NCBI GenBank assembly: GCA_020632555.1
Contig: JACKFI010000001.1
Location: 65,750-129,749, forward strand
Direction: 5' to 3'
Source: Candidatus Omnitrophota bacterium
Lineage (GTDB): Bacteria; Omnitrophota; Gorgyraeia; Zapsychrales; JANLHA01
DNA length: 64,000 nt
Part shown: in pieces, positions 1 through 49,705 of the stretch
Numbering within the stretch: position 1 is the first letter of the stretch
How the letters are laid out: each line of letters starts with the position of its first letter
Notes under the pieces: generated by a model
Told to the model about the DNA's origin: nothing
The model's database searches: none
The model's input: the letters and a program-made list of their open reading frames with translations, nothing else
Program-made: the position numbers and the translations under genes

Positions 1-3000
1 CTTTTTCCGGTGGCTTTAAGTCTGCTGGAATTTGAGGAATACCTTTGCCGCCGCTCAACTCATAAAAAACATCACCAGCCGCCCTATTGATCTGCTCTGT
101 TGTTTGGGTCGCTAAGAATTCATCCGCCCTTTCCATAAAAGAGATAAGACTTAGGTCATCTTTTCTTCTATCCCAATCTTCTTTTGCCCTGGAAGAATAA
201 AACACTTTCTGAAAAAATGAAAGACCTCTACCCAAAGACTGCTCATATTTAATATCTTCCTCACCCAGATAATCTCCAAATTTGAGTTTATCTAGTATCG
301 ACCAAGCAACAATACGGCTTGCGGGAATTACTTTATCGCCGTTGCTATCATACTTTGCAAAATTCATCAGAGTCTTTATTCTCTGCCGCGGAATCTTACT
401 GTTGGCAATTTCAATCAAATAAGCCCAAACTTCCTGCCGGGCCATTGGGCCTGTCGGTTTTACTATAAGATTCTTAACCCACGGCTCTGGGGACTGTATC
501 GGCAAATCCGAATAATCCCACATGGCAATATGCCCTAATTCATGGGTCAGAATATTACTAAAAAATAATTCCAATATCTCCCTGTCGCTTTTTACCTCAT
601 CAAATTTACTTAGATGCTGATCACGATTGATACCATTACCCTGGCTGTTCAAAAAGAATTCCTCTACCACAGGGACGTCCCCCTTAACCTGATCTACATC
701 GACAATGATTCCATATTTTCCAAAAGCAAGAGCCACCGTGCCATAAGGAATATTACTTCTTGGCTTAAGATAATAAATTGGAATATTTTTACCCATCAAC
801 TCAACAGTGTGCTGTGCAACAACATCAGACAAAGCCATATAAACTACAAAAGCCAAATAATTATGCGTATCTCTTGATAAAAACTTTGTTTCAGGAATAA
901 AAGGTTGGTCAATGCCTTCAAATTTAATCTGAGGATTCTCTTGTTTAAATTTATTAAACGCTATTTCTAAAATCTCTTTCTTCATAACAGGATTAAGTTG
1001 ATCTAAGATTTCCTTGGATATCAGCTGTTGAGCAATGCTTTCAAACGTATCTTGTCCCTGACTAATCACAATAACATCCGCGCCTTCTGTTAAAGAGAAA
1101 TCCGCGGCATCGGCATTGCCATGCAGTAAAAACGGGAATAAGCCCAATGCACCAATAGATTTCAAGAAATTACGCCGAGACTCCACCCCGCTGGAAGCGG
1201 AAGCCTTAATCAATGTCCCTATCGCATCCAACACTTCTGCCGCAAAGGGAGAATTACCGTGAGTAATATCTCTGCCTTTCAAATACCTAACATCACTATT
1301 CTTCAAGCCACTCTTAAAATTATTATTAAAAGTTTTCTCGTCAGGAGATAATTCACTCTCTAGTTTTGCTGGCGGATTATTTTCATCACCTTCAACCAAA
1401 AAAGTCATCCGACTGGAAAACGGCAAAGCCTGCCCCTCAGTATACAAGCTGGCTTGAATCAAACCTTTGGGATCTTGGGCTTTACTGATATTTTCAAAAC
1501 CCAACAGAGTCGTAACCGCCTTTGAAAATACCCCACCATAATCCATCGCGCGCGCAGAGCCGCCGTGAGTCGGCGCCACTTCAATAACAGCCGCCTGCGC
1601 AAACAAAGTCTGGTCATCAACAACCGCCTGCCGCAAAACAATATTGCCATACGAATGCGCGACGACAATAACATTATCAACATTATGCCGTCGTTGAAAA
1701 TCCTGCCAACGCGTCTTCAAATCTTGAGCAATCTCTTCTAAAGTACGGGAATCATCAAATTGAAACGCAATCAAATTCGCGTCCTGATAATACTCTTTGA
1801 AAGCATCGACAAAGGTAATCGCCCCGCCTTCTTTAGTCGCCCCGTGAATAAAAAGAACTGTCGGCTTTGTAGAGTCAAATTCCTTATAGATAGGCACCAA
1901 ACCATGGCCCTGTTTCTTTAACAAAACATGAATGTTATCCTTAATCTCTTGTTTAAATTCCTCCGAAGCACTGGGATAATTTAAAATTTTTAATGCCGCA
2001 AGCAATGGACCACGTTGAGCAGAAAGTTCGATTACGTCTTGTCGCGAGACATCTGGTGCTATCTGTTGAGCATAAGTGTCAATATTTACCGTCGACAAAA
2101 TACCGGCGGCAACCAAAGCCACAACAATTCTTTTAGCTATCGCCGAAGATGCCACCCCGCTGGAGGACGCGGCGTCAGGACCTTTGGATACCTGTTCTTC
2201 TAAAGTCTTATATTCTTCACGAATCCGCAGAGAAGTTTGTTTGATTTCACGCATCTGCCGAGCAAACTCATGCATGTCCTTAGGAATTCGGCGCGCCGTA
2301 ATGATATCATCAACAAACACCTCCATCTGGTCCTTTGCTGGCAAATTGTTTTGCCAATCTGTTAGCTGATGGGCATTAATAAACATCCTATTAACAAGAC
2401 TGGCAAAATCTATAATGTCTTGCTTAAATGGTGCATCCACAAGCCAAGGATTAAAGGTTGTCTCATTCCCGTACAAATAGCTCTGGGAGAAATCAATCGG
2501 CATAGCCTCAACCTGACCATTCTTCCGACTAACAACAACAAACTGAGGCTGAATGCCCTTCACAACAACCCCTGCCTGATGAATCTTGGAGAATGTTTCT
2601 GCGAGTTCAATCAAAACATCAAACTGTTCATCAACATCCAACGAATCCCATAAACGAGAATTGGACATCACTTGCGCATTGGACAAAACTTTCATTTTGG
2701 CATAGGGGAACACATCCCCATCTTTTAATTTCTTCAAACTATCCTTAATGCTAATTGTATTTGCTAATCCTCCCAATAAAGGCATAGGCTCGGACGCTTG
2801 AACTAACTGTTGGTACCAATACTCCGAATGATAAAAACGGCTCATCGTATCCAAAGTGAATTCTCCCCAAAATGATTTAACTCTCTGAGGAATGCCCACC
2901 ATCCACTTTCCTAGACTAACAATATGCTGTTTTGTCGTCGCATAGTCATTCTTAAGAAAATTTATCACATCAAACCCAAAATCTTCCAAATCCATTCTCA

Positions 3001-4690
3001 CACGCAATGGTCTTTTGATATTTCCTTGCTCCACAATTTCTGGGACAAGCCCTTGGATATCTGATTCAAAATTTAAAATCCGCAAAATGCTAGCTTGTGT
3101 ATTAACTGCGCCGGCCGATTGCCCAGAAGGAAAGGAGTCTTCAACCAGCCAAAGAAAACCTTCTAACAAACCAGAACCAAACCCATAATATCCATAACCC
3201 TTCTCAGCTCGACTAAATCTCGCGAAATCTCTCAAATCCATCGTCCATGTCGTCGCTCGCAAGTCTGACGGTAGCTGCCCATAATCCAACCCGCTGGAGG
3301 CGGTGATGGCAACGGCTTCGCCGGGAGTTTCGACACCGCTGGCGGCGACAAAGGCGAGTTGATCTTCTGGAGAATGCTTAATTTCATTAGTAACACGATT
3401 AACCGCAGAAGAACTTCGGTCAACTATTAATTGGTTGGGATTCAAGTTCATCCCCAATTTAAGTCCTCCGGAGAAATACTTGCGGGGAATCAAGTCGCCT
3501 TCACTATCGAGCTCTTCCTTGATGACGTTGTACGCGCCTTTTTTAAATGCTTCCAAATACTGTTCATACACTTTTTGTTTGATATCTTTAACGTCGGTTT
3601 CAACACCAGCAATTTTACTTTTGTCGGCGTAAATCCGACCCAACAGGGAATCTTTCAAAGCCTTCTTATACCATGCGGCTAAAATAACGCTTTGATACAC
3701 TTGACGGGTTGGGGCAAAACTTTTGCCGGTGTTGACTTCTTCGATAAGTTTGGGCAAAATCAGCTTGCGGAAAACTTGGGATGGGATACTAGGGGTTAGA
3801 CGTTGGTCGTTGGTGGTTGGATATTGGACGTTGGCAGTGTCATTGCGAGGAGCCGCAGGCGACGCGGCAATCTTGTCCTTACTGTCATTCCCGCGTGCTT
3901 TTAACGGGAGTCTATTTGGGGACTGTGGATCCCCGATAAATGCCTTCGGGGATGACAAATCTGAAGATTGCCGCGCCCCTGCGGGGCTTGTAATGACAAG
4001 GTATTCTTCATCCAACATCACATTTAATTTGCTGTCGGTAATGTAGGCGAATCCGTCTTTTTCAACCACCGTCGCGCTGTCGGGGATGATCCAGACCTTA
4101 TTCAATTGATTAGGGGTTAGGGATTGGGAGCTAGAGGTTAGCGTCTCTAACCGACGGACTTCATCCCAATACTGCTTGCCCAGCGGGGTATCAGGATTGG
4201 TTAGCGACGAGGCTAATTGCTTGAGCATATAATCCTGCTCGAGCATTTGCCGTCCCATTTCAGTTTGACCCAAAGCATCCGGGATGATGCGATCTTTTTC
4301 ATAAGGAGAAAGATTGACCCACGCATCCTGATCTGGAATGGTCATTGACGCGAGGAAATATTTGATCAATTTGGTGCTTTCAACTTTCAGTAAATCATTA
4401 TTGATCTTGTCCTGTCCGCGGTCGACGATAAAATCGAACAAAAGTGGATTCTCGGGATGAACACTCATGCCTTTTAAAATCGGCGGCGCAAATGGTGCCG
4501 TCAGCCAAATGGACTGGCCGGCAGCGGGAAGATTCATCAGTGCTGACGAGGAAAGACCGAGCCCTTGGGCGGCAAGTCCGCTAGATGGCCCAACAACCGT
4601 AAACACACTAAAGGTCAGCAGCAAACAGAGGCTGATCACTTTGCGCGTAAAAAAGGATAGCGTCGTCTTACGACAAAAAATATCGGACAT
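1..4690 (-). CDS. Giant modular membrane/exported protein, C-terminus beyond window edge (>=1563 aa); paralog of 12764..19573; carries alpha/beta-hydrolase-like and HExxH metallopeptidase-like modules
   Basis: Absent from the ORF track because it has no in-window stop. My translation from ATG 4690 (MSDIFCRKTTLSFFTRKVISLCLLL...) stays open to position 2. The N-terminal ~400 aa align with the 2269-aa protein (WVNLSPYEKDRIIP, KVWIIPDSA, IPRKYFSGG). TVLFIHG...VVAHSYG lies at 1646..1660 and HELGH at 530..544. Confidence 0.8.
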   Translation of the reverse strand, partial: MSDIFCRKTTLSFFTRKVISLCLLLTFSVFTVVGPSSGLAAQGLGLSSSALMNLPAAGQSIWLTAPFAPPILKGMSVHPENPLLFDFIVDRGQDKINNDLLKVESTKLIKYFLASMTIPDQDAWVNLSPYEKDRIIPDALGQTEMGRQMLEQDYMLKQLASSLTNPDTPLGKQYWDEVRRLETLTSSSQSLTPNQLNKVWIIPDSATVVEKDGFAYITDSKLNVMLDEEYLVITSPAGARQSSDLSSPKAFIGDPQSPNRLPLKARGNDSKDKIAASPAAPRNDTANVQYPTTNDQRLTPSIPSQVFRKLILPKLIEEVNTGKSFAPTRQVYQSVILAAWYKKALKDSLLGRIYADKSKIAGVETDVKDIKQKVYEQYLEAFKKGAYNVIKEELDSEGDLIPRKYFSGGLKLGMNLNPNQLIVDRSSSAVNRVTNEIKHSPEDQLAFVAASGVETPGEAVAITASSGLDYGQLPSDLRATTWTMDLRDFARFSRAEKGYGYYGFGSGLLEGFLWLVEDSFPSGQSAGAVNTQASILRILNFESDIQGLVPEIVEQGNIKRPLRVRMDLEDFGFDVINFLKNDYATTKQHIVSLGKWMVGIPQRVKSFWGEFTLDTMSRFYHSEYWYQQLVQASEPMPLLGGLANTISIKDSLKKLKDGDVFPYAKMKVLSNAQVMSNSRLWDSLDVDEQFDVLIELAETFSKIHQAGVVVKGIQPQFVVVSRKNGQVEAMPIDFSQSYLYGNETTFNPWLVDAPFKQDIIDFASLVNRMFINAHQLTDWQNNLPAKDQMEVFVDDIITARRIPKDMHEFARQMREIKQTSLRIREEYKTLEEQVSKGPDAASSSGVASSAIAKRIVVALVAAGILSTVNIDTYAQQIAPDVSRQDVIELSAQRGPLLAALKILNYPSASEEFKQEIKDNIHVLLKKQGHGLVPIYKEFDSTKPTVLFIHGATKEGGAITFVDAFKEYYQDANLIAFQFDDSRTLEEIAQDLKTRWQDFQRRHNVDNVIVVAHSYGNIVLRQAVVDDQTLFAQAAVIEVAPTHGGSARAMDYGGVFSKAVTTLLGFENISKAQDPKGLIQASLYTEGQALPFSSRMTFLVEGDENNPPAKLESELSPDEKTFNNNFKSGLKNSDVRYLKGRDITHGNSPFAAEVLDAIGTLIKASASSGVESRRNFLKSIGALGLFPFLLHGNADAADFSLTEGADVIVISQGQDTFESIAQQLISKEILDQLNPVMKKEILEIAFNKFKQENPQIKFEGIDQPFIPETKFLSRDTHNYLAFVVYMALSDVVAQHTVELMGKNIPIYYLKPRSNIPYGTVALAFGKYGIIVDVDQVKGDVPVVEEFFLNSQGNGINRDQHLSKFDEVKSDREILELFFSNILTHELGHIAMWDYSDLPIQSPEPWVKNLIVKPTGPMARQEVWAYLIEIANSKIPRQRIKTLMNFAKYDSNGDKVIPASRIVAWSILDKLKFGDYLGEEDIKYEQSLGRGLSFFQKVFYSSRAKEDWDRRKDDLSLISFMERADEFLATQTTEQINRAAGDVFYELSGGKGIPQIPADLKPPEK
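3839..3998. repeat. Block of four REP-like palindromic units forming an inverted duplication, embedded in-frame in the giant CDS
   Basis: Units are gtcattgcgagg..gcggcaatc (3839..3872), gtcattcccgcg..cgggag (3884..3910), tccccg..cggggatgac (3930..3956) and gattgccgcg..taatgac (3966..3997). Units 1+2 are roughly the reverse complement of units 3+4. Confidence 0.7.
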
Positions 4691-12744: not shown

Positions 12745-12772
12745 AAAAAAGTAGGAGTTGTCCCTACTTTTT
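12745..12772 (-). terminator. Weak hairpin/T-tract overlapping the stop of the 2269-aa gene
   Basis: The sequence is aaaaaaGTAGGagttgtcCCTACttttt. The stem is short and can extend through A:T pairs. Confidence 0.35.
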
Positions 12773-15700
12773 AATGGCGGAGGCTAGCTGATTGTCGGAA
12801 TCAACGCTGGACATTCCTAAAAACATATCGATGGTCGCGACCGGCACCACTTCAATGATCAGCGGTACAAAACGGTCGGAGGGCATGGCATTGAGCATAC
12901 TGGGATCCAACAAGAATTCTGGCGCTGGGAAAACAGCCAAGGAGGCAGAATCCCCAGTGACATTCATTTTTAACAGACGTGGATTCAAATCAATACCACC
13001 GGGCGCAGTCGCATTAGCGCTCGCGGTTAAGGCCGAGCTGGATACCTGCGGGAGAACTGTTTCTTCATTCGACTGTGTTACAGTTTGCTTGTTAAACTCT
13101 TGAGCTGATTCATCAACAGCAGCCGCATTCTGTTGAGGTAAAGTAGTTTGTTCAACAGCTGTTTCTTTTTTCTTTGGTGGAAAATTTGCTAATGGATCAG
13201 CCCCTCTAAACTCAACCGGTTTTTCACTTTTCATTCGCGGAATAGCGGTTGATAAAACACCGGTGCGGAAGAATGTCTTGGAGCGATCCCAAATTTGCAC
13301 CATCCATTTGCCGAATTTAAAGGTCGTTGCATATCGATAGGCTGATTCAATAAAAACTTTTTCGCCAATGAGCCGTCCATAAAGATCGAAACTGTGATGA
13401 TAAAAATCCAAAACCCGCGGCGTGGGAAGATGAATATCTGGAGCGCCAATATTCATTTTATGTTGTGCTCCCGCCGGAACATTTTTGGCGTCTTTGCCGC
13501 GGAAGATGACAAAAATTTCGGCGCCGGCTTTCATGAACTGCCCAAGAATTCCATTTTTGACCGCGGCCACTTGCTGTATGCTTAAAGCAACTTGATCTTG
13601 TGCTGTCGATTCATACGGCATACCAAAAAGCGCCAAAGTGCCGCGAGCAATACGCGGCAAAAGCTTAGCAGCCAATGAGTCGGTCGGGTCCGTGCTCAAA
13701 ACATGCATGTGCATCGACGCTGGTGCTTGCGAACCAAGCTTCACAGCATACATTTCCCCTGATTCTCTTACCAATAAGGACGGATCATTGACAGCCAAGG
13801 TTGTTCCCGATAACCTCGCCCAGCGTGGCCGCTGGCTAAACCAGCGATAAATCCACACCGTAAACTGCCATTGAAACAGCAAAGCAATGGTCGCGTCAGC
13901 CATATGCACAGCGATGGCTATTGCGTTGAAACCAGCCGGCAACGGCGCACCGCTCAAAGACTCAAACAAACTTTGTACCGGAGCCGCAAGCAGAAAAACA
14001 CCAATGACAAATAATCGAAAGTACAAATTCGTAAACGGTCCCTCCAATATCGTTTTACCAACATGTTCCCCTTTTTTGTTCAACATCTCATGAACTTCTG
14101 TTGTCTGAGGCTCTCCTTGGACATTAACACCCACCAAACGCGCCGCTTCCTCAACTAAAATGTCATCCCGCAAACGTTCCAACTCAGCAATCTCATTGTT
14201 GTTCATGGTCATACCAAAGGGCTGACGATGCGGATACAATTGACGAAAATGCTGGGCCAAATAAATCACCAATTCAATATTATTAATAAACAATGCGATT
14301 TCACCGGCACTGATTGCTTCTGATGGATAATAATCTCCCGTATAAAAAATGCGCTGACAAAACGGGGAATCCTTTAAATATTTTTGTCCCAGCGCAAAGC
14401 CAACCAAGGTGTCTGCTCGTGAAGTGCTGGCAAAAACTCGACCCGGCATCATGCGCATTAAACGCGCAACAACCCCTTTGCTGGGTGCTGTCCCGCCCGA
14501 CTTGGACGTGACCATGGCAACCGTCCGCCGGCCAACGCCATCATGACCACTTAAACTCAAAGCCTTATTCGACGACAGATTTAATCTTCGCATTTTAGGA
14601 AAAACGACATGATACAAATCATCTAACGCCTCTCCCAAATGTTCAGAATTTTCATAACCTGTGCTCACAGCATCAATTTCGCCGGCACCAATAGGAACAT
14701 CCTGACCTCCCTGCGCAATAGCATCGTCAAGCCATTGTTGAAAAAATTTAAAATCATTATTAGCAATTCGCTGGCCAATCCTTTTTAATTCACGATAAAA
14801 TTGCAGTTGTAAGGACCGCTCAAACTCATCCTGAATCTCCGGCAAGTCATCTTCTGTTATTTCTTCGGCAATCATCTGATGTGCTAATTGATCTGCCTTC
14901 TGTTCAATGATGCGATCAAGATAATCGGTAAAATAAGGAATAATGCTGTCATTCTGTACTTCATGCAAAATGCGAGCTTTAGTTTCACGGCCTTGCGGCG
15001 TTGTTGTATCCATCACATTATCAATGATCACGCCCAAATTATTAGTTATCTCGCCTTGTCTGCGTCCGTAAACCAAACTATTGGTTTTCAAATATGTTTC
15101 TAAATCTCGCGCGACAAATTGATTCAACATAGCTGCCGCTGTCTGACGAGCATGGGAATGTTCATTGTCCCAATCGCCGCGCAATTCTGCGGCGATAGCA
15201 GGAATCTTTTCCAAATCCTCTTTGGTTTTATTGCTTGAATCTTTATAAACCAAGGGCTTGCGAAAATACGGACTATCTTCTGCTTGTGGATAAGAATTAC
15301 CGAGGATTTCATCATGCGTTAAAGAACGATTTTCTGCGAATGAATAAACGTCCAAACTAAATAAAGGACCATTTTTATTATCAAAAACCGTAACATCCGC
15401 CATTTGTCCCGGCTCCTGCGAATCCAAAATAATAATATTTTCCAAGGGCCCTCTTTGGCCATGATCGTACATCATCGCCGAATGTTCCGAACTAAACTCG
15501 ACGTAGCGGCCAACAGTGCTATAACCAATCGCTAAACCCTGTTCATTGGCATACAGCGTAAAACTATTGGGGTGTAAAGAATCCTTGGCCTGAACCCCGA
15601 ACGTGCCTTTGGCCACTTGTGCAAATTCACGCACTGACGTTGCGCGATCACCAACGAAGAATCGTTCAACCAAAAGATCGACAAACGCTTTGAGCGTCTG

Positions 15701-18700
15701 ATCATTATGGCGGCGCCACTGCCGAATCAAAATCCCTTGGGCCGTCGCTTGTTTCCCGTCTTCAATTTCGTCACGCACGTCCATCAATCTTTGCAGCAGT
15801 GTCGCGCGAAAATGTTCCAAAGCTTGAAATTGAGGCGCCCAGCGAGCATCAGCGTTGACCATGTCTGGAGTGGCCCAAAGATCAACATAACCTTTATTCT
15901 CTTTGGACAAACCCAGTCGCACTAACTGATCAGACTGCTCAACAAACACGCCTTGAATAAACTGTGTGATCAAATTCATTTGTTCTGCAGTCATCACGTG
16001 ATCAACAACTTCTTGCCGATTGTGATGCACCGCATTGGTATAGGCGTAGCGTAAAGATGATTTCCAATTGCCCTGCGTTAATCCAAACAATATTTGCAAA
16101 GCAATCGGCGGCGAATCCCCATTAACAATGCGATGCTTGGCTGGCAAATTCCCATGTTCATCACGTTCGGTAACCCACTGATACGCATCTCCCAATTCAT
16201 ATTGATAAATCTCGGCATAATAATCCCGCAATTGGGCAGTATCCATTTCCTGCCCGAACATCGTCACTTGCAAATCTGATTTTTGCAAATCCTCCCAAAT
16301 ATCATCATATTGAGCCTCTTTGATTTCTGGCGGACGAGACGCTGAGCCATCTTCGTTACGAACCAAACGTACGGTATCCTGCGCGACTTCTTCTAATTTA
16401 CCTTGCGCAATCAATGCATCCAAAATTCCATTTCCCTTGGGATCCGCTTGCGAAAATCTAAACTTAGCAATAGCACGCAAATTATCTCCATTGGCGGCAA
16501 TGGAAACAATCACTTGATCGGGCTGACTTGCAAAACGTCCGTCTTGTATGACCCAATTGTCCTGAATGGCAAAATCACCTTCTCCTTTTCTCCACAAACC
16601 AAATAATCCAGCGGCCAATTGATTATCCGTCGTCGTGAAAGGATGCGCTGCTGCCAGCAAGCTGGCCCCGCCGGTCGGCAAACGAACATGTCCGGTAACA
16701 CCATGAACACGACTTTTAGAATGAGCAACAATCTTTTTGCCGACAGCTTTTTTAACGGTTTTGCGAAACTTGCGATCCAAAGATTTGAACAAATCCCCTC
16801 CGCGTTTGGCTTTTAACACTTTGGCCACCAATGCGACTGTTTTTTGCTGGGCTTGATTCCACGCAAAAGTCATCATCCCCGATGACTCGCCGCCGCGCAA
16901 AGTTAATAATTCTAAATGCCTGCCCAATAAAACTGACACCCAGCGAGGATAAATACGCTCTTGTGGATTAGCTGGTTTTTCATTCTCATCGTCAACCCAA
17001 TAAATACCAAAATTACCGCAAGCGATAATAAACCATTGCATCAGCGAACCAGTCGCGTGATCAACAAAAGAAAAATAAGCCGCGAGCCCTGCCGCCAAAG
17101 AGGCCCAAGCTATACTTGCCGCGAGGGAATTGCGCCAACTTCGACCAGAGCCAGATTGCCCTTTATCCTTAAACACACCCATCGCGCCGGGTAAATTTTT
17201 CTGCCCCCCAGCCGCTTGAGACTGGGAAATGGCGGTCGCTGATTTTCTTTGCGCTAAAATCTCTTCTGCTCGCAAAGCCTCATCTTGATCAGGAACTGTA
17301 GCAATCCCTGATGGAACCGTAAAACCAACAGACTCTTGATGGGCCTTCTGAGCAAAAGCAAGTTCTTCATCCATCGGGACTTGAGCCTGACGACTTGAAA
17401 CAATAAAATCATTTTTAATTGTGGGCTTTTGTATCAACGTCTCCTGGGCAACTTCCTCAACGTATTGTTGCACCGGTTCAACTTTCTTTGCCTCTGATGT
17501 TGATAGGGCATTGGCTCGCACTGCGCCATAGGCTCTGGGTTCGAAGGTCACGGCCCGTACCACATTGACAACGCGCTCATTGACTATCGCCCAATTAACC
17601 AAAGGTTGGGCAGGATCGGCGGACAATCGATTTGATTTTTTATCTTGTCCCGCAAACTTTTGTCCTGCCGCGCTCAGTAAACCAAAACTCGCCAACATTA
17701 AACCTAAAATAGTCCACGAAACAACTGACGGAATGGATTCAATTTTTGTTGTAGCAACGATATCTGATGTGGAAATACTGGATGGTTCGACAACGACGGG
17801 CTGGGCACTGGGCTTTTCTGCCGAAGCCCTAGCGGCTGGGGGTAGCGACGCAACTTTGCTAACATCGGTGGCATTAAGAAAACTAGCTGGAATCACATAT
17901 GTTTTGCCGGCGGTGATTTTGTCCTGATCACTGATTTGCATCGCTTGCGCGACTTTTTCAACCGCACCACTTTTACCCCACAGATGACCGTCTAATAAAT
18001 CTGAACTGCCTTTAACTTTTTGCGCTTTTAATGTCTGCACAATATCGCCCAATGTATCATTCTTCTCAACGTGAATGATCATGCCGCGATCTTTTTGAAA
18101 ATCAAATTGCGCCGCCTGCGTTTGTGTCACGAAACCCAATGTTGAAAATAAAAGTATGGTCGAAAGAGCAATGCCAATCGCTTTGCGCAGAGAACTGGTT
18201 TTTCTAAATAATTTACCAACAGATAAACCGAAAGCCGAGCCGGTAACTATTTTTGCAGGATCTATTAGCGCTGAAGCGGCCACCGCCTTGGGAGCAATTA
18301 ATTGCATTTGGTTGTACCAATTGACTCCCTGCGGATTTACCACAACCGAAGAAACACGATAACCAATCCCACCCTGATAACCGACCGAATGCACTTGCAA
18401 TCGGAGCAAGGCCGCAGGATTAGATGTTTCCCGATAGGCAGAAGGTTCTCCCGCCTTAAGTGAAGCGAAACCCGTAAAGGAAACTCCACCAGCAAAATAT
18501 TTGCGCGGAATCATTTCTTCCGTGACCGGGTCATAATCTTCACGAATGAAATTAAAAGCTCCTTTTTTAAACGCGGCTAAATACTGCTGATAAATTTTCT
18601 CTTTGATTTCCTTATCATCCACATCCACACCAGCGACTTTATTTTGGCCGACATACACTTTGCTAAAAAGATTATTGCGCAAATGCCGTTTAAACCAAGT

Positions 18701-19573
18701 CGCCAAAATCATCGCGTGATAAATCTGGCGCAACATCGCAAAATTTTCGCCTTCGTTGACTTCTTTTTCAATGGCAGGAATGATCACTTCACGAATGGTT
18801 TGGGAAGGACTGTCAGGGGTTAGGGGTTGGGGATTAGGGGTTAGGGGCTGGTCGCTGGGGGAGTTGTTCTCCGATAACGTCCAGCTTCCAGCGTCCAACG
18901 TCTTTTGCATCGCGGTAAAATCCTCTGCCAGCATCACCTTCAAATGGCTGTCCACAACAAAAGCATTGCCGTCCTTGGTATAAACTTCGGCAGAATCCGG
19001 GATAATCCAAACTTTATTAAACGTATTGATATTCGAGATTTGACCGCCTGACTGCGCGGCTTTATTGTAAATCTTTTTCCAAAACTCTTCACCCCGCGCT
19101 GTTGTCGGATCCAATAGGGAAGCTGAGATTTGTTTTAAAAAGTAATCCTGCGCCAATAAATCACGGCCCATTTCGGTCACGCCAAAACCGGTGGGCATAA
19201 TGCGGTCTTTTTCATAAGGCGACAAATTGACCCAAAGGTCATCTTCCGGCACAGTCAAAGACGCTAAAAAATATTTAATCAATTTCTGAGATTCTAAGCT
19301 AACCTCTTGCGCATTAAGCTGCTCTTGGCCTGGATCGATTAAGAAGTCAAAACGAAAAGGATTGTCAGGATAAGTTTTAATGCCCTTGATGAGAACTGGC
19401 GCATAGGCAGAACTCAAGCTCACAGCGGTTCCGGGCATAGGCAAACTCTGCAGATAACTCTGCGCGTAAGCTATTGACTGATAACCAAATGTATCGACGG
19501 AAAATGCAATCAAAACAGTCCAAATCACCGTTCTAAAAAGCAATCCCCATTTTTTCTTTTGTAACCAATGCAT
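12764..19573 (-). CDS. Giant modular membrane protein (2269 aa): shared N-terminal module, LysM-like segment, and a membrane-embedded GlmS-like (class-II amidotransferase + SIS-like) module
   Basis: It is a complete ORF. The N-terminal ~400 aa are paralogous to 1..4690. Amidotransferase-like motifs are IIACGNFG (Cys codon 17018..17020), LTLRGGESSGM and GHVRLPTGG...AAHPF. SIS-like motifs are AVSTGYENSE and MVTSKSGGTAPS. Several hydrophobic helices are present. Confidence 0.85.
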   Translation of the reverse strand: MHWLQKKKWGLLFRTVIWTVLIAFSVDTFGYQSIAYAQSYLQSLPMPGTAVSLSSAYAPVLIKGIKTYPDNPFRFDFLIDPGQEQLNAQEVSLESQKLIKYFLASLTVPEDDLWVNLSPYEKDRIMPTGFGVTEMGRDLLAQDYFLKQISASLLDPTTARGEEFWKKIYNKAAQSGGQISNINTFNKVWIIPDSAEVYTKDGNAFVVDSHLKVMLAEDFTAMQKTLDAGSWTLSENNSPSDQPLTPNPQPLTPDSPSQTIREVIIPAIEKEVNEGENFAMLRQIYHAMILATWFKRHLRNNLFSKVYVGQNKVAGVDVDDKEIKEKIYQQYLAAFKKGAFNFIREDYDPVTEEMIPRKYFAGGVSFTGFASLKAGEPSAYRETSNPAALLRLQVHSVGYQGGIGYRVSSVVVNPQGVNWYNQMQLIAPKAVAASALIDPAKIVTGSAFGLSVGKLFRKTSSLRKAIGIALSTILLFSTLGFVTQTQAAQFDFQKDRGMIIHVEKNDTLGDIVQTLKAQKVKGSSDLLDGHLWGKSGAVEKVAQAMQISDQDKITAGKTYVIPASFLNATDVSKVASLPPAARASAEKPSAQPVVVEPSSISTSDIVATTKIESIPSVVSWTILGLMLASFGLLSAAGQKFAGQDKKSNRLSADPAQPLVNWAIVNERVVNVVRAVTFEPRAYGAVRANALSTSEAKKVEPVQQYVEEVAQETLIQKPTIKNDFIVSSRQAQVPMDEELAFAQKAHQESVGFTVPSGIATVPDQDEALRAEEILAQRKSATAISQSQAAGGQKNLPGAMGVFKDKGQSGSGRSWRNSLAASIAWASLAAGLAAYFSFVDHATGSLMQWFIIACGNFGIYWVDDENEKPANPQERIYPRWVSVLLGRHLELLTLRGGESSGMMTFAWNQAQQKTVALVAKVLKAKRGGDLFKSLDRKFRKTVKKAVGKKIVAHSKSRVHGVTGHVRLPTGGASLLAAAHPFTTTDNQLAAGLFGLWRKGEGDFAIQDNWVIQDGRFASQPDQVIVSIAANGDNLRAIAKFRFSQADPKGNGILDALIAQGKLEEVAQDTVRLVRNEDGSASRPPEIKEAQYDDIWEDLQKSDLQVTMFGQEMDTAQLRDYYAEIYQYELGDAYQWVTERDEHGNLPAKHRIVNGDSPPIALQILFGLTQGNWKSSLRYAYTNAVHHNRQEVVDHVMTAEQMNLITQFIQGVFVEQSDQLVRLGLSKENKGYVDLWATPDMVNADARWAPQFQALEHFRATLLQRLMDVRDEIEDGKQATAQGILIRQWRRHNDQTLKAFVDLLVERFFVGDRATSVREFAQVAKGTFGVQAKDSLHPNSFTLYANEQGLAIGYSTVGRYVEFSSEHSAMMYDHGQRGPLENIIILDSQEPGQMADVTVFDNKNGPLFSLDVYSFAENRSLTHDEILGNSYPQAEDSPYFRKPLVYKDSSNKTKEDLEKIPAIAAELRGDWDNEHSHARQTAAAMLNQFVARDLETYLKTNSLVYGRRQGEITNNLGVIIDNVMDTTTPQGRETKARILHEVQNDSIIPYFTDYLDRIIEQKADQLAHQMIAEEITEDDLPEIQDEFERSLQLQFYRELKRIGQRIANNDFKFFQQWLDDAIAQGGQDVPIGAGEIDAVSTGYENSEHLGEALDDLYHVVFPKMRRLNLSSNKALSLSGHDGVGRRTVAMVTSKSGGTAPSKGVVARLMRMMPGRVFASTSRADTLVGFALGQKYLKDSPFCQRIFYTGDYYPSEAISAGEIALFINNIELVIYLAQHFRQLYPHRQPFGMTMNNNEIAELERLRDDILVEEAARLVGVNVQGEPQTTEVHEMLNKKGEHVGKTILEGPFTNLYFRLFVIGVFLLAAPVQSLFESLSGAPLPAGFNAIAIAVHMADATIALLFQWQFTVWIYRWFSQRPRWARLSGTTLAVNDPSLLVRESGEMYAVKLGSQAPASMHMHVLSTDPTDSLAAKLLPRIARGTLALFGMPYESTAQDQVALSIQQVAAVKNGILGQFMKAGAEIFVIFRGKDAKNVPAGAQHKMNIGAPDIHLPTPRVLDFYHHSFDLYGRLIGEKVFIESAYRYATTFKFGKWMVQIWDRSKTFFRTGVLSTAIPRMKSEKPVEFRGADPLANFPPKKKETAVEQTTLPQQNAAAVDESAQEFNKQTVTQSNEETVLPQVSSSALTASANATAPGGIDLNPRLLKMNVTGDSASLAVFPAPEFLLDPSMLNAMPSDRFVPLIIEVVPVATIDMFLGMSSVDSDNQLASAIKK

Positions 19574-19794: not shown

Positions 19795-21219
19795 TGTCCA
19801 GCCAAATTAAAAATGTCCTAGTTTAACCAAATTAAAAATGTCCTAATTTTAGAAGTTTCGTAAGCTCCCTTTGAGCTTAAACCCGTTGCGCCAATATGAC
19901 CCCCTAGGCGGCACATATCGCGGCAATCTTTTGACCTTTTTGACAACGGCAACCTTAACCTCTGGCTGCGGCCGTTGGTCTATCGGTTTAAACGCTAATG
20001 GCTGCTTCCCATACTTGATCGCCAGCCGGCCATTTAAATACTCAAAAACTACCACCTGCCGAGCCCGCGTTTTATCTGTCACCTGATACAACCGGCGTTC
20101 ATGCAACACGGTTCGGTCATTGCGTAACACATGCCCTGTCTGTACGGACAATATCTCGTCGAGTTTAACGCTCTTATCAATCGGCCGATGCATATCACCC
20201 AACAACCGCGCTACTACCCTAAAGCGCTTATTAAACTTCGGCAAATACGTTTTTAAGAATGCGTTGGCTTCTTCACAACTCTTAATCCCGGCCAACCGCA
20301 TCTCTTTAACCAACCGGTCTTGCAATGTCTTAAAAACACGCTCGATGCGTCCCTTGGCCTGCGGACTATGCGCATGAATAACTTCGATCCCAAGTTGCTT
20401 GCATGCTCGCTCAAACTGCGTCAGCTCTTCTTTGTCCTCAAAATCCCAATTCGCATAGCGATATCTTTTCTTAGCATTGCTTTTATACGTCGCATGCTTA
20501 TCAAGATACAATTGCACCGGCAATCCATACTTCTGGGCGTAAGACTTTAACCCGCCCATCGCCGGTTTGGTCCCCTCATACTCAAAGAACAACCCATCAA
20601 AATTACTCGTTGCGTCGTCGATAAATCCCATCAAGACCAACTTCGGTCCTCGGTCTTCCAGCCAAAGATGATGACTCCCGTCCATCTGCACCATTTGCCC
20701 AAACCGTTCCTTACGGGCTCGCCAACTGCGCTCTTTAACTTTTCGACGCTTGCCCTCATGCCATAATCCTTCTGCTATCAGCCACAGCCGCAATGTCTCA
20801 TCACTAATCTTAATATGATCTAATTCCCAAAGTTTCTCGCTGGCTAAAAGTGGACCAAATCCCTTGTATCGCTCACGGTACAAACCCAAAATCCTTTCAC
20901 GTACCGCTTTGGCAACACTACGCCGTCCTTTGCATCCTCGCGATCGGTGGATGACTCCGCGTTCTCCTTCCTTGCGTACCCGTCGGACAATCCGCCTAAT
21001 CTGTCGATCACTTAATTCTAAGATCTCGGACGCTTCCTGCTGGTTAATACTTTTGTCAAAGACCTTCCCAATAATTTGATAACGCTTTATCTCCTTTGAC
21101 CTTACCATCATCATGTCCTCTCTGTGAACCATAACGCCTCCTTTATTGCGTTATGGTAGGTTATCAGATTAGGACATTTTTATTTTGGTCAATTAGGACA
21201 TTATCATTTTGGGGTTACA
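19795..21219 (-). mobile_element. Insertion sequence copy 1 (1425 bp), DDE/rve transposase, ISNCY/IS1202-like or IS481-like
   Basis: The ends are TGTCCAGCC... and ...GGGGTTACA. The imperfect ~55-bp terminal inverted repeats each contain two CCAAAWTRAWAATGTCCTA subrepeats. It is flanked by a 16-bp direct repeat and is identical to 24554..25978. Confidence 0.9.
19849..21132 (-). CDS. DDE transposase (N-terminal HTH + integrase-core rve domain), 427 aa
   Basis: HTH region is QQEASEILELSDRQIRRIV. Catalytic context is QMDGSHH...IDDATS...SPQAKGRIER. AAGGAGG lies 5 nt upstream of the ATG. Confidence 0.9.
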   Translation of the reverse strand: MVHREDMMMVRSKEIKRYQIIGKVFDKSINQQEASEILELSDRQIRRIVRRVRKEGERGVIHRSRGCKGRRSVAKAVRERILGLYRERYKGFGPLLASEKLWELDHIKISDETLRLWLIAEGLWHEGKRRKVKERSWRARKERFGQMVQMDGSHHLWLEDRGPKLVLMGFIDDATSNFDGLFFEYEGTKPAMGGLKSYAQKYGLPVQLYLDKHATYKSNAKKRYRYANWDFEDKEELTQFERACKQLGIEVIHAHSPQAKGRIERVFKTLQDRLVKEMRLAGIKSCEEANAFLKTYLPKFNKRFRVVARLLGDMHRPIDKSVKLDEILSVQTGHVLRNDRTVLHERRLYQVTDKTRARQVVVFEYLNGRLAIKYGKQPLAFKPIDQRPQPEVKVAVVKKVKRLPRYVPPRGSYWRNGFKLKGSLRNF

Positions 21220-24538: not shown

Positions 24539-24553
24539 CAGACAGATTTTTGG
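24539..24553. repeat. Target-site duplication, left of IS copy 2
   Basis: cagacagatttttgg is repeated exactly at 25979..25993. Confidence 0.8.
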
Positions 24554-25978
24554 TGTCCAGCCAAATTAAAAATGTCCTAGTTTAACCAAATTAAAAATGT
24601 CCTAATTTTAGAAGTTTCGTAAGCTCCCTTTGAGCTTAAACCCGTTGCGCCAATATGACCCCCTAGGCGGCACATATCGCGGCAATCTTTTGACCTTTTT
24701 GACAACGGCAACCTTAACCTCTGGCTGCGGCCGTTGGTCTATCGGTTTAAACGCTAATGGCTGCTTCCCATACTTGATCGCCAGCCGGCCATTTAAATAC
24801 TCAAAAACTACCACCTGCCGAGCCCGCGTTTTATCTGTCACCTGATACAACCGGCGTTCATGCAACACGGTTCGGTCATTGCGTAACACATGCCCTGTCT
24901 GTACGGACAATATCTCGTCGAGTTTAACGCTCTTATCAATCGGCCGATGCATATCACCCAACAACCGCGCTACTACCCTAAAGCGCTTATTAAACTTCGG
25001 CAAATACGTTTTTAAGAATGCGTTGGCTTCTTCACAACTCTTAATCCCGGCCAACCGCATCTCTTTAACCAACCGGTCTTGCAATGTCTTAAAAACACGC
25101 TCGATGCGTCCCTTGGCCTGCGGACTATGCGCATGAATAACTTCGATCCCAAGTTGCTTGCATGCTCGCTCAAACTGCGTCAGCTCTTCTTTGTCCTCAA
25201 AATCCCAATTCGCATAGCGATATCTTTTCTTAGCATTGCTTTTATACGTCGCATGCTTATCAAGATACAATTGCACCGGCAATCCATACTTCTGGGCGTA
25301 AGACTTTAACCCGCCCATCGCCGGTTTGGTCCCCTCATACTCAAAGAACAACCCATCAAAATTACTCGTTGCGTCGTCGATAAATCCCATCAAGACCAAC
25401 TTCGGTCCTCGGTCTTCCAGCCAAAGATGATGACTCCCGTCCATCTGCACCATTTGCCCAAACCGTTCCTTACGGGCTCGCCAACTGCGCTCTTTAACTT
25501 TTCGACGCTTGCCCTCATGCCATAATCCTTCTGCTATCAGCCACAGCCGCAATGTCTCATCACTAATCTTAATATGATCTAATTCCCAAAGTTTCTCGCT
25601 GGCTAAAAGTGGACCAAATCCCTTGTATCGCTCACGGTACAAACCCAAAATCCTTTCACGTACCGCTTTGGCAACACTACGCCGTCCTTTGCATCCTCGC
25701 GATCGGTGGATGACTCCGCGTTCTCCTTCCTTGCGTACCCGTCGGACAATCCGCCTAATCTGTCGATCACTTAATTCTAAGATCTCGGACGCTTCCTGCT
25801 GGTTAATACTTTTGTCAAAGACCTTCCCAATAATTTGATAACGCTTTATCTCCTTTGACCTTACCATCATCATGTCCTCTCTGTGAACCATAACGCCTCC
25901 TTTATTGCGTTATGGTAGGTTATCAGATTAGGACATTTTTATTTTGGTCAATTAGGACATTATCATTTTGGGGTTACA
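24554..25978 (-). mobile_element. Insertion sequence copy 2 (1425 bp), identical to copy 1
   Basis: It has the same ends and orientation, offset by exactly 4759 bp. All six-frame ORF translations are identical between the copies. It has its own 15-bp direct repeat. Confidence 0.9.
24608..25891 (-). CDS. DDE transposase, identical to 19849..21132
   Basis: The 427-aa translation is identical. Confidence 0.9.
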   Translation of the reverse strand: MVHREDMMMVRSKEIKRYQIIGKVFDKSINQQEASEILELSDRQIRRIVRRVRKEGERGVIHRSRGCKGRRSVAKAVRERILGLYRERYKGFGPLLASEKLWELDHIKISDETLRLWLIAEGLWHEGKRRKVKERSWRARKERFGQMVQMDGSHHLWLEDRGPKLVLMGFIDDATSNFDGLFFEYEGTKPAMGGLKSYAQKYGLPVQLYLDKHATYKSNAKKRYRYANWDFEDKEELTQFERACKQLGIEVIHAHSPQAKGRIERVFKTLQDRLVKEMRLAGIKSCEEANAFLKTYLPKFNKRFRVVARLLGDMHRPIDKSVKLDEILSVQTGHVLRNDRTVLHERRLYQVTDKTRARQVVVFEYLNGRLAIKYGKQPLAFKPIDQRPQPEVKVAVVKKVKRLPRYVPPRGSYWRNGFKLKGSLRNF

Positions 25979-31481: not shown

Positions 31482-31523
31482 GTGATGTCCCTACCTGTCT
31501 ATTTTCCCTATGTCCTTTATCTT

Positions 31524-31554
31524 GTCATTGCGAGGCCGTCAGGCCGAAGCAATC
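31524..31554. repeat. REP-like palindromic unit in the hypC-hypD spacer
   Basis: gtcattgcgaggccgtcaggccgaagcaatc belongs to the same family as 3839..3872 and, inverted, 49631..49663. Confidence 0.6.
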
Positions 31555-31614
31555 TGTAACAAAAACAAATTAACTTCACTAACGGTTCCAAAAACGGTAG
31601 ACATTAATTTTCAT

Positions 31615-49573: not shown

Positions 49574-49630
49574 GGCAACAAAGAACAGGAATTTCCCCCA
49601 AAGATTTTTTATATCGATGAGTTTCTCAAA

Positions 49631-49663
49631 GATTGCTTCGGCTAAAAAGCAGCCCGCAATGAC
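49631..49663. repeat. REP-like palindromic unit (inverted orientation)
   Basis: gattgcttcggctaaaaagcagcccgcaatgac belongs to the same family as 31524..31554. Confidence 0.55.
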
Positions 49664-49705
49664 ACGTGAAAAAACAGGGAAACTCCACCACAAAGAAAGA
49701 TTAAA

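Follow-up and report, generated by a model that had tools for sequence, protein, structure and literature searches.

How does a run of four hairpin units come to lie inside a giant open reading frame (ORF) and leave that frame intact? The question is raised by a 64,000-nt stretch of a Candidatus Omnitrophota genome (assembly GCA_020632555.1, contig JACKFI010000001.1, positions 65,750 to 129,749 of the forward strand), hereafter the window, whose coordinates are used throughout. A preliminary description, made from the sequence alone, had placed four palindromic units within the ORF without a break in frame; they are indeed present at 3838-3998, and the minus-strand frame is open throughout. 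Comparison with homologous genes indicates that this block is an older heads-outward doublet carrying a younger heads-outward doublet of another type in its spacer. We consider it probable that the block is a pile-up of non-autonomous GTCAT-palindrome-C hairpin repeats of the NTS/Ssn-related motif (SRM) class, acquired by two-step nested insertion and retained as near-neutral passengers. The features concerned are as follows.

2..4690, minus strand: host gene, a giant ORF of at least 1563 aa that leaves the window at its left edge, with an N-terminal signal/transmembrane helix.
3419-4690, minus strand: conserved ~410-aa N-terminal domain of the host gene, with homologs and an AlphaFold (AF2) core.
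3836..3997, minus strand: 54 codons supplied by the block; residues 232-285, numbered from the ATG at 4690, within linker 2 of the N-terminal domain.
3838..3998, no strand assigned: the block as a whole, an imperfect hairpin of ~160 nt made up of one heads-outward doublet of hairpin units nested in another.
3838-3874, plus strand: U1, TGTCATTGCGAGGAGCCGCAGGCGACGCGGCAATCTT, TTGCGAG type, on the coding strand the right-hand unit of the outer doublet; encodes IAASPAAPRNDT.
3883-3915, plus strand: U2, TGTCATTCCCGCGTGCTTTTAACGGGAGTCTAT, TTCCCGCG (NTS/SRM) type, inner doublet; encodes part of RLPLKARGND.
3957..3927, minus strand: U3, TGTCATCCCCGAAGGCATTTATCGGGGATCC, TCCCCGA type with a perfect 7-bp stem, inner doublet; encodes LSSPKAFIGDP.
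3998..3964, minus strand: U4, TGTCATTACAAGCCCCGCAGGGGCGCGGCAATCT, decayed TTGCGAG type (TTACAAG), left member of the outer doublet; encodes VITSPAGARQS.
31523-31555, plus strand: U5, a single TTGCGAG-type unit in the intergenic hypD/hypC gap.
49664..49630, minus strand: U6, a single TTGCGAG-type unit in the intergenic gap between an MFS transporter gene and an HI0933-like gene.
3723..4046, plus strand: antisense ORF of 107 aa with a TTG start, reading the antisense of the units.

The units of the block share a common plan, TGTCAT followed by a hairpin and ATC(T/C), and the TGTCAT head stands at the start of six out of six units in the window. In U1 and U4, both of the TTGCGAG type, an ATTGC/GCAAT stem encloses a second, variable stem. 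From 4720 to the left window edge the host frame has no stop; its first ATG is at 4690, and it reads the block as VITSPAGARQSSDLSSPKAFIGDPQSPNRLPLKARGNDSKDKIAASPAAPRNDT, identical to the peptide quoted in the preliminary description. As RNA, the block folds into a single long hairpin of -77.2 kcal/mol (z = -7.3) and as DNA it reaches -45.4 kcal/mol (z = -6.6); none of 200 shuffles was as stable in either case. Judged from its sequence, it would constitute a 160-bp near-palindrome in the DNA, a possible cruciform or deletion hazard, and would give the mRNA a very stable hairpin and the protein 54 added residues. The units had also been taken for REP-like dispersed repeats with intergenic copies. 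In agreement with this, the unit pattern is matched 25 times in 482 kb (window plus related loci) when 1.6 matches are expected from shuffles; the window alone holds six copies in 64 kb, and the intergenic copies exist as U5 and U6. By direct reading, the forward unit is free of stop codons in all three frames and the reverse unit in two. The plus-strand ORF at 3723..4046, correctly described as an antisense shadow, owes its open frame solely to the absence of stop codons from both strands of the units.

The history of the block can be read from three related loci. The closest relative found, L018, shares 66% protein identity and flanking DNA that is ~80% identical; at the identical codon position it reads TVIASPEGARQS-QTG-IASSPAAPRNDT, the counterparts of U4 and U1 on either side of an 8-nt spacer, and has no U2 or U3. 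The window gene thus holds 84 extra nt at this place, the inner pair, while U4 and U1 are each 89% identical to their L018 counterparts (L018 152-186 and 193-228, respectively). Conversely, the U3/U2-type doublet occurs alone in linker 2 of L007, where it reads LSSPHVLSGDPLPKIDSRFRGND, and of L032; a TTGCGAG-type doublet, reading VIASEAKQSLKNEIASSLAAPRNDN, occupies linker 1 of L007, linker 1 being a second variable segment ~50 residues upstream of linker 2. It is because L018 has the outer pair alone, and linker 2 of L007 and L032 the inner type alone, that we read the block as two nested doublets of two unit types; loss of the inner pair from L018 would account for the 84-nt difference less simply. 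The unit-by-unit identities follow the same division: U1 is closer to L018_b and L007_b (0.89 each) than to U4 (0.81), U2 is closer to L025 (0.85) than to U3 (0.70), and no unit of the block is as close to its block partner as it is to some copy from a different genome. The insertion had been called recent, which holds for one part of it: the inner 84 nt are lineage-specific, whereas L018 has the outer pair too, at matching codons, between flanks that are ~20% diverged. On these sequences the word would apply at most to the inner pair, the outer one being common to the window gene and L018. The nested block and its homolog with the outer pair only provide a natural before-and-after pair for the study of doublet insertion.

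The domain that received the block has more than 900 homologs, nearly all labelled Candidatus Omnitrophota where a name exists, with many paralogs per metagenome-assembled genome (MAG). A Pfam scan of both giant proteins of the window gave no match, and Foldseek found no match in the PDB with E below 0.1 for the model of the domain. This AF2 model, built from 121 sequences (mean pLDDT 74.6), predicts an N-terminal helix and two well-folded halves with a disordered joining segment between them; within the segment that holds the block, pLDDT falls below 50 at 242-289 and secondary structure is absent at 247-300. Linker 2 is hypervariable in length, ranging from 26 to 88 residues across 104 homologs. 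The block had been assigned to a linker that is short and of low complexity in the paralog at 12764..19573, and the alignment agrees that the paralog lacks the block: the two proteins are 41% identical over the N-terminal ~410 aa, with a gap where the block sits. The paralog's copy of the domain lies on the minus strand at 18350-19573, and the domain in both giant proteins is uncharacterised, highly paralogous and endowed with a confident AF2 core.

Hairpin units are one of several kinds of insert found in the linkers, which look like a permissive dumping ground for units, heptamers, hairpins and an intron end alike. In the window, a further repeat abuts the block.

3795..3834, plus strand: tandem of the heptamer GTTGGAC, 5.7 copies, within the coding region; encodes NVQYPTTNDQ.

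Heptamer-type peptides recur in homolog linkers as SVQPPTSN or TLDAGRWTL (L008, L018 and P0001), and other hairpins, GGGACTGTCCC, are found in the linkers of L001 and L032. At L033 62-133, the 3' end of a group II intron (domains V/VI; RF00029, 37.9 bits, E 3.5e-6, a score just under the gathering score) ends inside linker 2. The same intron end lies at L005 1-47, at a contig start in the same MAG. Slippage in the perfect 7-nt tracts beside the block would shift the frame. We also observed G-rich motifs, TAGGGGTTAGGGATTGGG, at 4111-4141 and 3778-3799, which flank both linkers and encode recurring 'PLTPN' peptides; these peptides likewise occur in the paralog (QPLTPNPQPLTP) and in P0005, and the motifs may represent a further short repeat family.

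Units are present in about 8 of 120 members of the domain family, in arrangements that differ from one member to the next. Besides the doublets of L007, L018 and L032, L038 has one unit, in a third loop, and P0022 has one TTGCGAG unit, translated in the SLRG frame; P0049 and P0079 hold doublets that have decayed, and P0057 and P0081 each hold one NTS-type unit that reads VIPA.AGIH, which for P0081 was confirmed in the DNA of L167 as TGTCATTCCCGCGAAAGCGGGAATCC. Because unit types, numbers, frames and positions differ among family members, these sequences point to independent, recurrent insertion events. The DNA encoding the N-terminal domain holds 13 units in 40.8 kb, a figure that takes in the left unit of the L032 doublet, which the DNA-level count had assigned to 'rest of ORF'; no in-frame unit lies in the 123.7 kb that make up the rest of the same giant ORFs, and other DNA holds about 8 in 318 kb. 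Leaving out the window, simple arithmetic on these densities gives 8-9 units observed in the domain for about 1.5 expected. An alignment of homologs had been proposed as the check for an ancient domain, which all of them would carry; instead, types, numbers and frames differ, and homologs at 54-63% identity have no block.

Outside the family, a metagenome scan with the pattern TGTCATTGCGAG-N(8-30)-GAAGCAATC retrieved at least 120 loci. Among the matches listed, the majority of units are intergenic or just upstream of genes, and the inner stems of the TTGCGAG type vary in sequence while keeping their complementarity (120 distinct inner segments). In-frame heads-outward doublets nevertheless occur in three other proteins: a class I lysyl-tRNA synthetase (LysRS), between the anticodon-binding and B3/4 domains assigned by Pfam (L159), an M50 protease (L120) and a PFL-like enzyme (L105). 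The LysRS ORF has a second insert-like segment, IRHSGKRSQVPSGTWRSASRISNVVRDSGQARMTD, at residues ~355-400, which looks like another in-frame hairpin-repeat type. Two loci show units in clusters. In L075 (4151-5000), units of the TTGCGAG type follow one another in tandem with alternating orientation and a 121/242-nt period, like BIME/NIME clusters, and in L069 (1600-2600), unit clusters bracket a small cassette of two short ORFs, by eye a candidate HicAB-like toxin-antitoxin pair.

What the units are was suggested by a literature search on the stem sequence. The Neisseria dRS3 repeats have been described as part of a 28-nt oriented hairpin, NTS (CGTCATTCCCGCGMAVGCGGGAATCYRG), and the description was generalised to SRM (PMC11893778, Nat Commun 2025; this paper is also the source for the Ssn proteins and ssn genes that follow). 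Ssn proteins are small single-domain GIY-YIG nucleases (cd10448) that bind the motif as single-stranded DNA (ssDNA) only and cut a few nucleotides upstream of it; the three bases before the palindrome (GTC) matter for cutting by SsnA and the C right after it for binding. The ssn genes are typically flanked by motifs, in an IS-like manner. NTS has a role in transformation, and NTS/dRS3 bracket variable antigen genes of Neisseria, SsnA trimming incoming ssDNA. The published SRM pattern is HGTCWYN(0-2)YYVSBRHN(0-5)WNVSBRGN(0-2)RNCYNB, with HGTCWY as the oriented head (PMC11893778).

The GTC-palindrome-C anatomy is kept in all our units, of both types, the six window units having the form TGTC-A...T-C. 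The palindrome closes with A-T...A-T and is followed by C, as ATTGC...GCAAT-C in one type and ATCCCCGA...TCGGGGAT-C in the other; in U2 the closing pair has decayed (AGTC). The SRM pattern itself is matched by U2, alone among the window units, and by five TTCCCGC-type units of the related loci; U1, U3, U4, U5 and U6, which have longer loops or TTGCGAG stems, do not match. Units like TGTCATTCCCGCGAAAGCGGGAATCC in the related loci equal the NTS consensus except at the first base (T for C) and, where read, at one 3' position (YRG). By sequence, then, TTCCCGCG-type units appear to fit NTS almost exactly, and the anatomy would place the inner pair within NTS/SRM and the outer pair partly so. Genes for the nuclease were found outside Omnitrophota. 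The family was retrieved with a consensus of ~95-aa GIY-YIG proteins and is very large, and in L040, a Nitrospirae MAG, such a ~95-aa gene has heads-outward NTS units on both sides; in L068 the same arrangement is accompanied by a TTGCGAG-type pair 600 nt away. Because this NTS-ssn-NTS arrangement was found in L040 and L068, we infer that the heads-outward doublet is its gene-less form, and the units themselves suggest that an Ssn-type nuclease may be involved in Omnitrophota. Other searches were uninformative: Rfam at gathering thresholds gave nothing in the window and 14 loci, a protein search with the 54-aa block peptide gave no usable candidates, and literature searches returned unrelated primers only (string GTCATTGCGAG), nothing relevant (Omnitrophota plus palindromic), no paper linking Rickettsia palindromic elements (RPE) to GIY-YIG and no follow-up papers on Ssn.

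We propose the following course of events. Selfish hairpin repeats of the NTS/SRM class would spread as single units and heads-outward doublets. In a first step, before the split of the window gene and the L018 gene, a TTGCGAG-type doublet would have landed in linker 2, a disordered surface loop of a giant secreted or anchored Omnitrophota protein; later, a TTCCCGCG/TCCCCG-type doublet (84 nt with its spacer) would have landed in the spacer of the first. Coding copies would survive only if the frame is kept, the frame used has no stop and an extra disordered segment is tolerated, and the linker 2 of an abundant paralog family would allow all three, so that units accumulate there, one inside another. 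The copies of the block would persist because its length is a multiple of three, the frame used is stop-free and the loop tolerates the extra residues, 54 disordered residues rich in Pro, Ser, Ala and Arg, which is the same situation as that of RPE.

Several observations weigh against this proposal. No consistent target-site duplication was seen by eye at six junctions, although inverted ends (TGTCAT...ATGACA) are present, and no pair of empty and filled sites was seen at the strain level. Because neither was seen, we infer the mobility of the units from their distribution only. The TTGCGAG type (U1, U4, U5 and U6) fails the published SRM pattern. A search of the window and 39 Omnitrophota loci (~0.48 Mb) with a regular expression and a hidden Markov model (HMM) from P0121-P0240 found no ssn-like GIY-YIG gene; Pfam found no RAYT-like or transposase gene near the block, with no Y1_Tnp match among the 42 window ORFs. 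Among the matches listed, an ssn gene stands near TTGCGAG units in 1 of 120 loci, and there it is flanked by the other unit type; nor did clustering of ORFs within 1.5 kb at the 120 loci listed reveal a recurrent neighbour gene for these units. The single cut that Ssn makes in one strand per unit does not itself explain the copying of doublets. Finally, the outer units are somewhat better conserved between the window and L018 than the coding flanks (64/72, 89%, vs 343/430, 78-81%), a suggestive difference in a small sample, which could hint at constraint and not neutrality.

Alternatively, the units could be domesticated recombination-control sites, promoting or limiting exchange with ssDNA or paralogs in the middle of the domain, in a family of surface proteins with many paralogs per MAG. 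This reading, drawn by analogy with NTS/dRS3, we regard as unlikely. It is favoured by the strong concentration of units in the domain linkers relative to the rest of the same ORFs, by the slightly better conservation of the outer units, by the role of NTS in transformation (PMC11893778), and by contigs and homology blocks that break exactly at linker 2 (L029-L033; L032 6195-6265). Metagenome assemblers, however, yield contig breaks at repeats anyway; the majority of family members do without units, those that are present differ in type, number, frame and precise position, and some copies have decayed (U4, P0049 and P0079). The linker also gathers heptamer tandems, other hairpins and a group II intron, which looks like tolerance and not design. 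A related and similarly doubtful proposal, by analogy with Neisseria, is that the linkers are a preferred landing pad for Ssn-type repeats, the units having been co-opted as strand-specific cut or recombination-boundary sites that govern exchange of the variable C-terminal giant regions with paralogs or incoming ssDNA. If true, it would make the block a version of the Neisseria NTS system embedded in coding sequence. As for the breaks themselves, the contig starts of L029-L033 and the internal homology block of L032 begin exactly at linker 2; in L032, homology begins at the doublet, four bases past the stop codon of an unrelated upstream ORF. Such starts may reflect breaks or chimeras that assembly produced at repeats, or else genuine gene copies truncated at the 5' end.

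The hairpin could instead be selected in the mRNA, to make ribosomes pause once the first half of the domain is made or to provide an RNase III site that tunes expression. The fold expected of the mRNA strand (-77 kcal/mol, z = -7.3) and its location between the two predicted folded halves speak for such an element; indeed, the folding check called for in the preliminary description returned this single long hairpin of -77.2 kcal/mol. We nevertheless find it quite improbable, as homologs have none, one or two units or unrelated sequence at that place, single units in other homologs amount to stems of ~10 bp only, SsnA does not bind RNA (PMC11893778), and there is no Rfam match.

The preliminary description had read the block as a local inverted duplication of a two-unit segment, its two halves being 70% identical as reverse complements (arms of ~80 nt). 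Within neither pair, however, are the partners more alike than each is to copies from other genomes; only the outer pair is present in L018, and only the inner type in linker 2 of L007 and L032; and the two pairs belong to different unit types. Local inverted duplication, contradicted by unit-by-unit identities and homolog anatomy, was therefore rejected as very improbable. The hardest to maintain is an ancient functional peptide with incidental DNA palindromes, which has in its favour an outer-pair peptide common to L018 and which we rejected as improbable in the extreme, given that homologs read the same DNA units in different frames (VIAS vs SLRG), that unit copies exist between genes and in unrelated proteins, that the region is predicted to be disordered, and that the block is absent from homologs at 54-63% identity.

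Elsewhere in the window, two segments of 1425 bp at 19795-21219 and 24553-25977 are 100% identical. Each carries a 427-aa ORF with a helix-turn-helix-like N-terminus and no Pfam match; they are probably two insertion sequence (IS) copies bracketing ~3.3 kb with nitroreductase, DUF975 and DEAD-box helicase genes.

How does the insertion of hairpin repeats compare with known systems? With NTS/SRM, the units share the oriented head GTCAT, the palindrome and the C directly after it, what looks like a dispersed multi-copy family, with clusters of alternating orientation (L075), and ssn genes with heads-outward flanking units (L040 and L068). They differ in that the hairpin of the TTGCGAG type is longer, has two stems and a conserved internal loop, and fails the SRM pattern, and in that neither the window nor the 39 Omnitrophota loci yielded an ssn gene; the available part of PMC11893778 mentions neither in-frame copies inside genes nor nested doublets nor Omnitrophota. 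The relation to REP/REPIN-RAYT systems and BIMEs lies in short hairpin units with a conserved 5' tag, in inverted doublets that fold as one long hairpin (seen also in L007, L018, L032, L105 and L159), in arrays of alternating orientation and in a gene for a single-strand-specific nuclease flanked by its own units. Their tag, however, is TGTCAT where REPs have GTAG or CGTC; wherever an enzyme gene was seen with them, it was of the GIY-YIG type and not that of an HUH Y1 transposase (RAYT); and REPs are extragenic by definition whereas our units are repeatedly intragenic and in frame. Miniature inverted-repeat transposable elements that fuse in frame (ERIC, BOX, Correia/NEMIS) are likewise small, non-autonomous, bounded by inverted ends (TGTCAT...ATGACA) and readable as protein, but the doublets are much smaller (75-80 nt) and no target-site duplication was seen. 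We know of no IS with ends matching the units.

The relation to the host protein resembles that of RPE, palindromic repeats of ~100-150 bp found in frame in many unrelated genes, to which they add a tolerated peptide (PMC10969869). The block is also palindromic, in frame and the source of a tolerated peptide; the host lineage is another one, RPE are single long elements and not doublets or nested doublets of ~30-nt units, and here one paralogous family is struck repeatedly at the same loop. In-frame colonisation of genes by palindromic repeats thus extends beyond Rickettsia to Omnitrophota and other uncultured lineages, where it also affects housekeeping genes such as those for LysRS and an M50 (RseP-like) protease. 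It would link very common 'junk' peptides of metagenome annotation (…VIASEAKQS…, …AAPRND., …RFRGND., …VIPAKAGIH…) to a class of hairpin repeats with a known ssDNA nuclease partner, and such blocks would account for antisense ORFs that are spurious and for contigs that break within conserved genes. Altogether, by analogy with these systems, the block appears to combine the unit anatomy of NTS/SRM, the doublet form of REPINs and the relation to the host protein that is seen in RPE.

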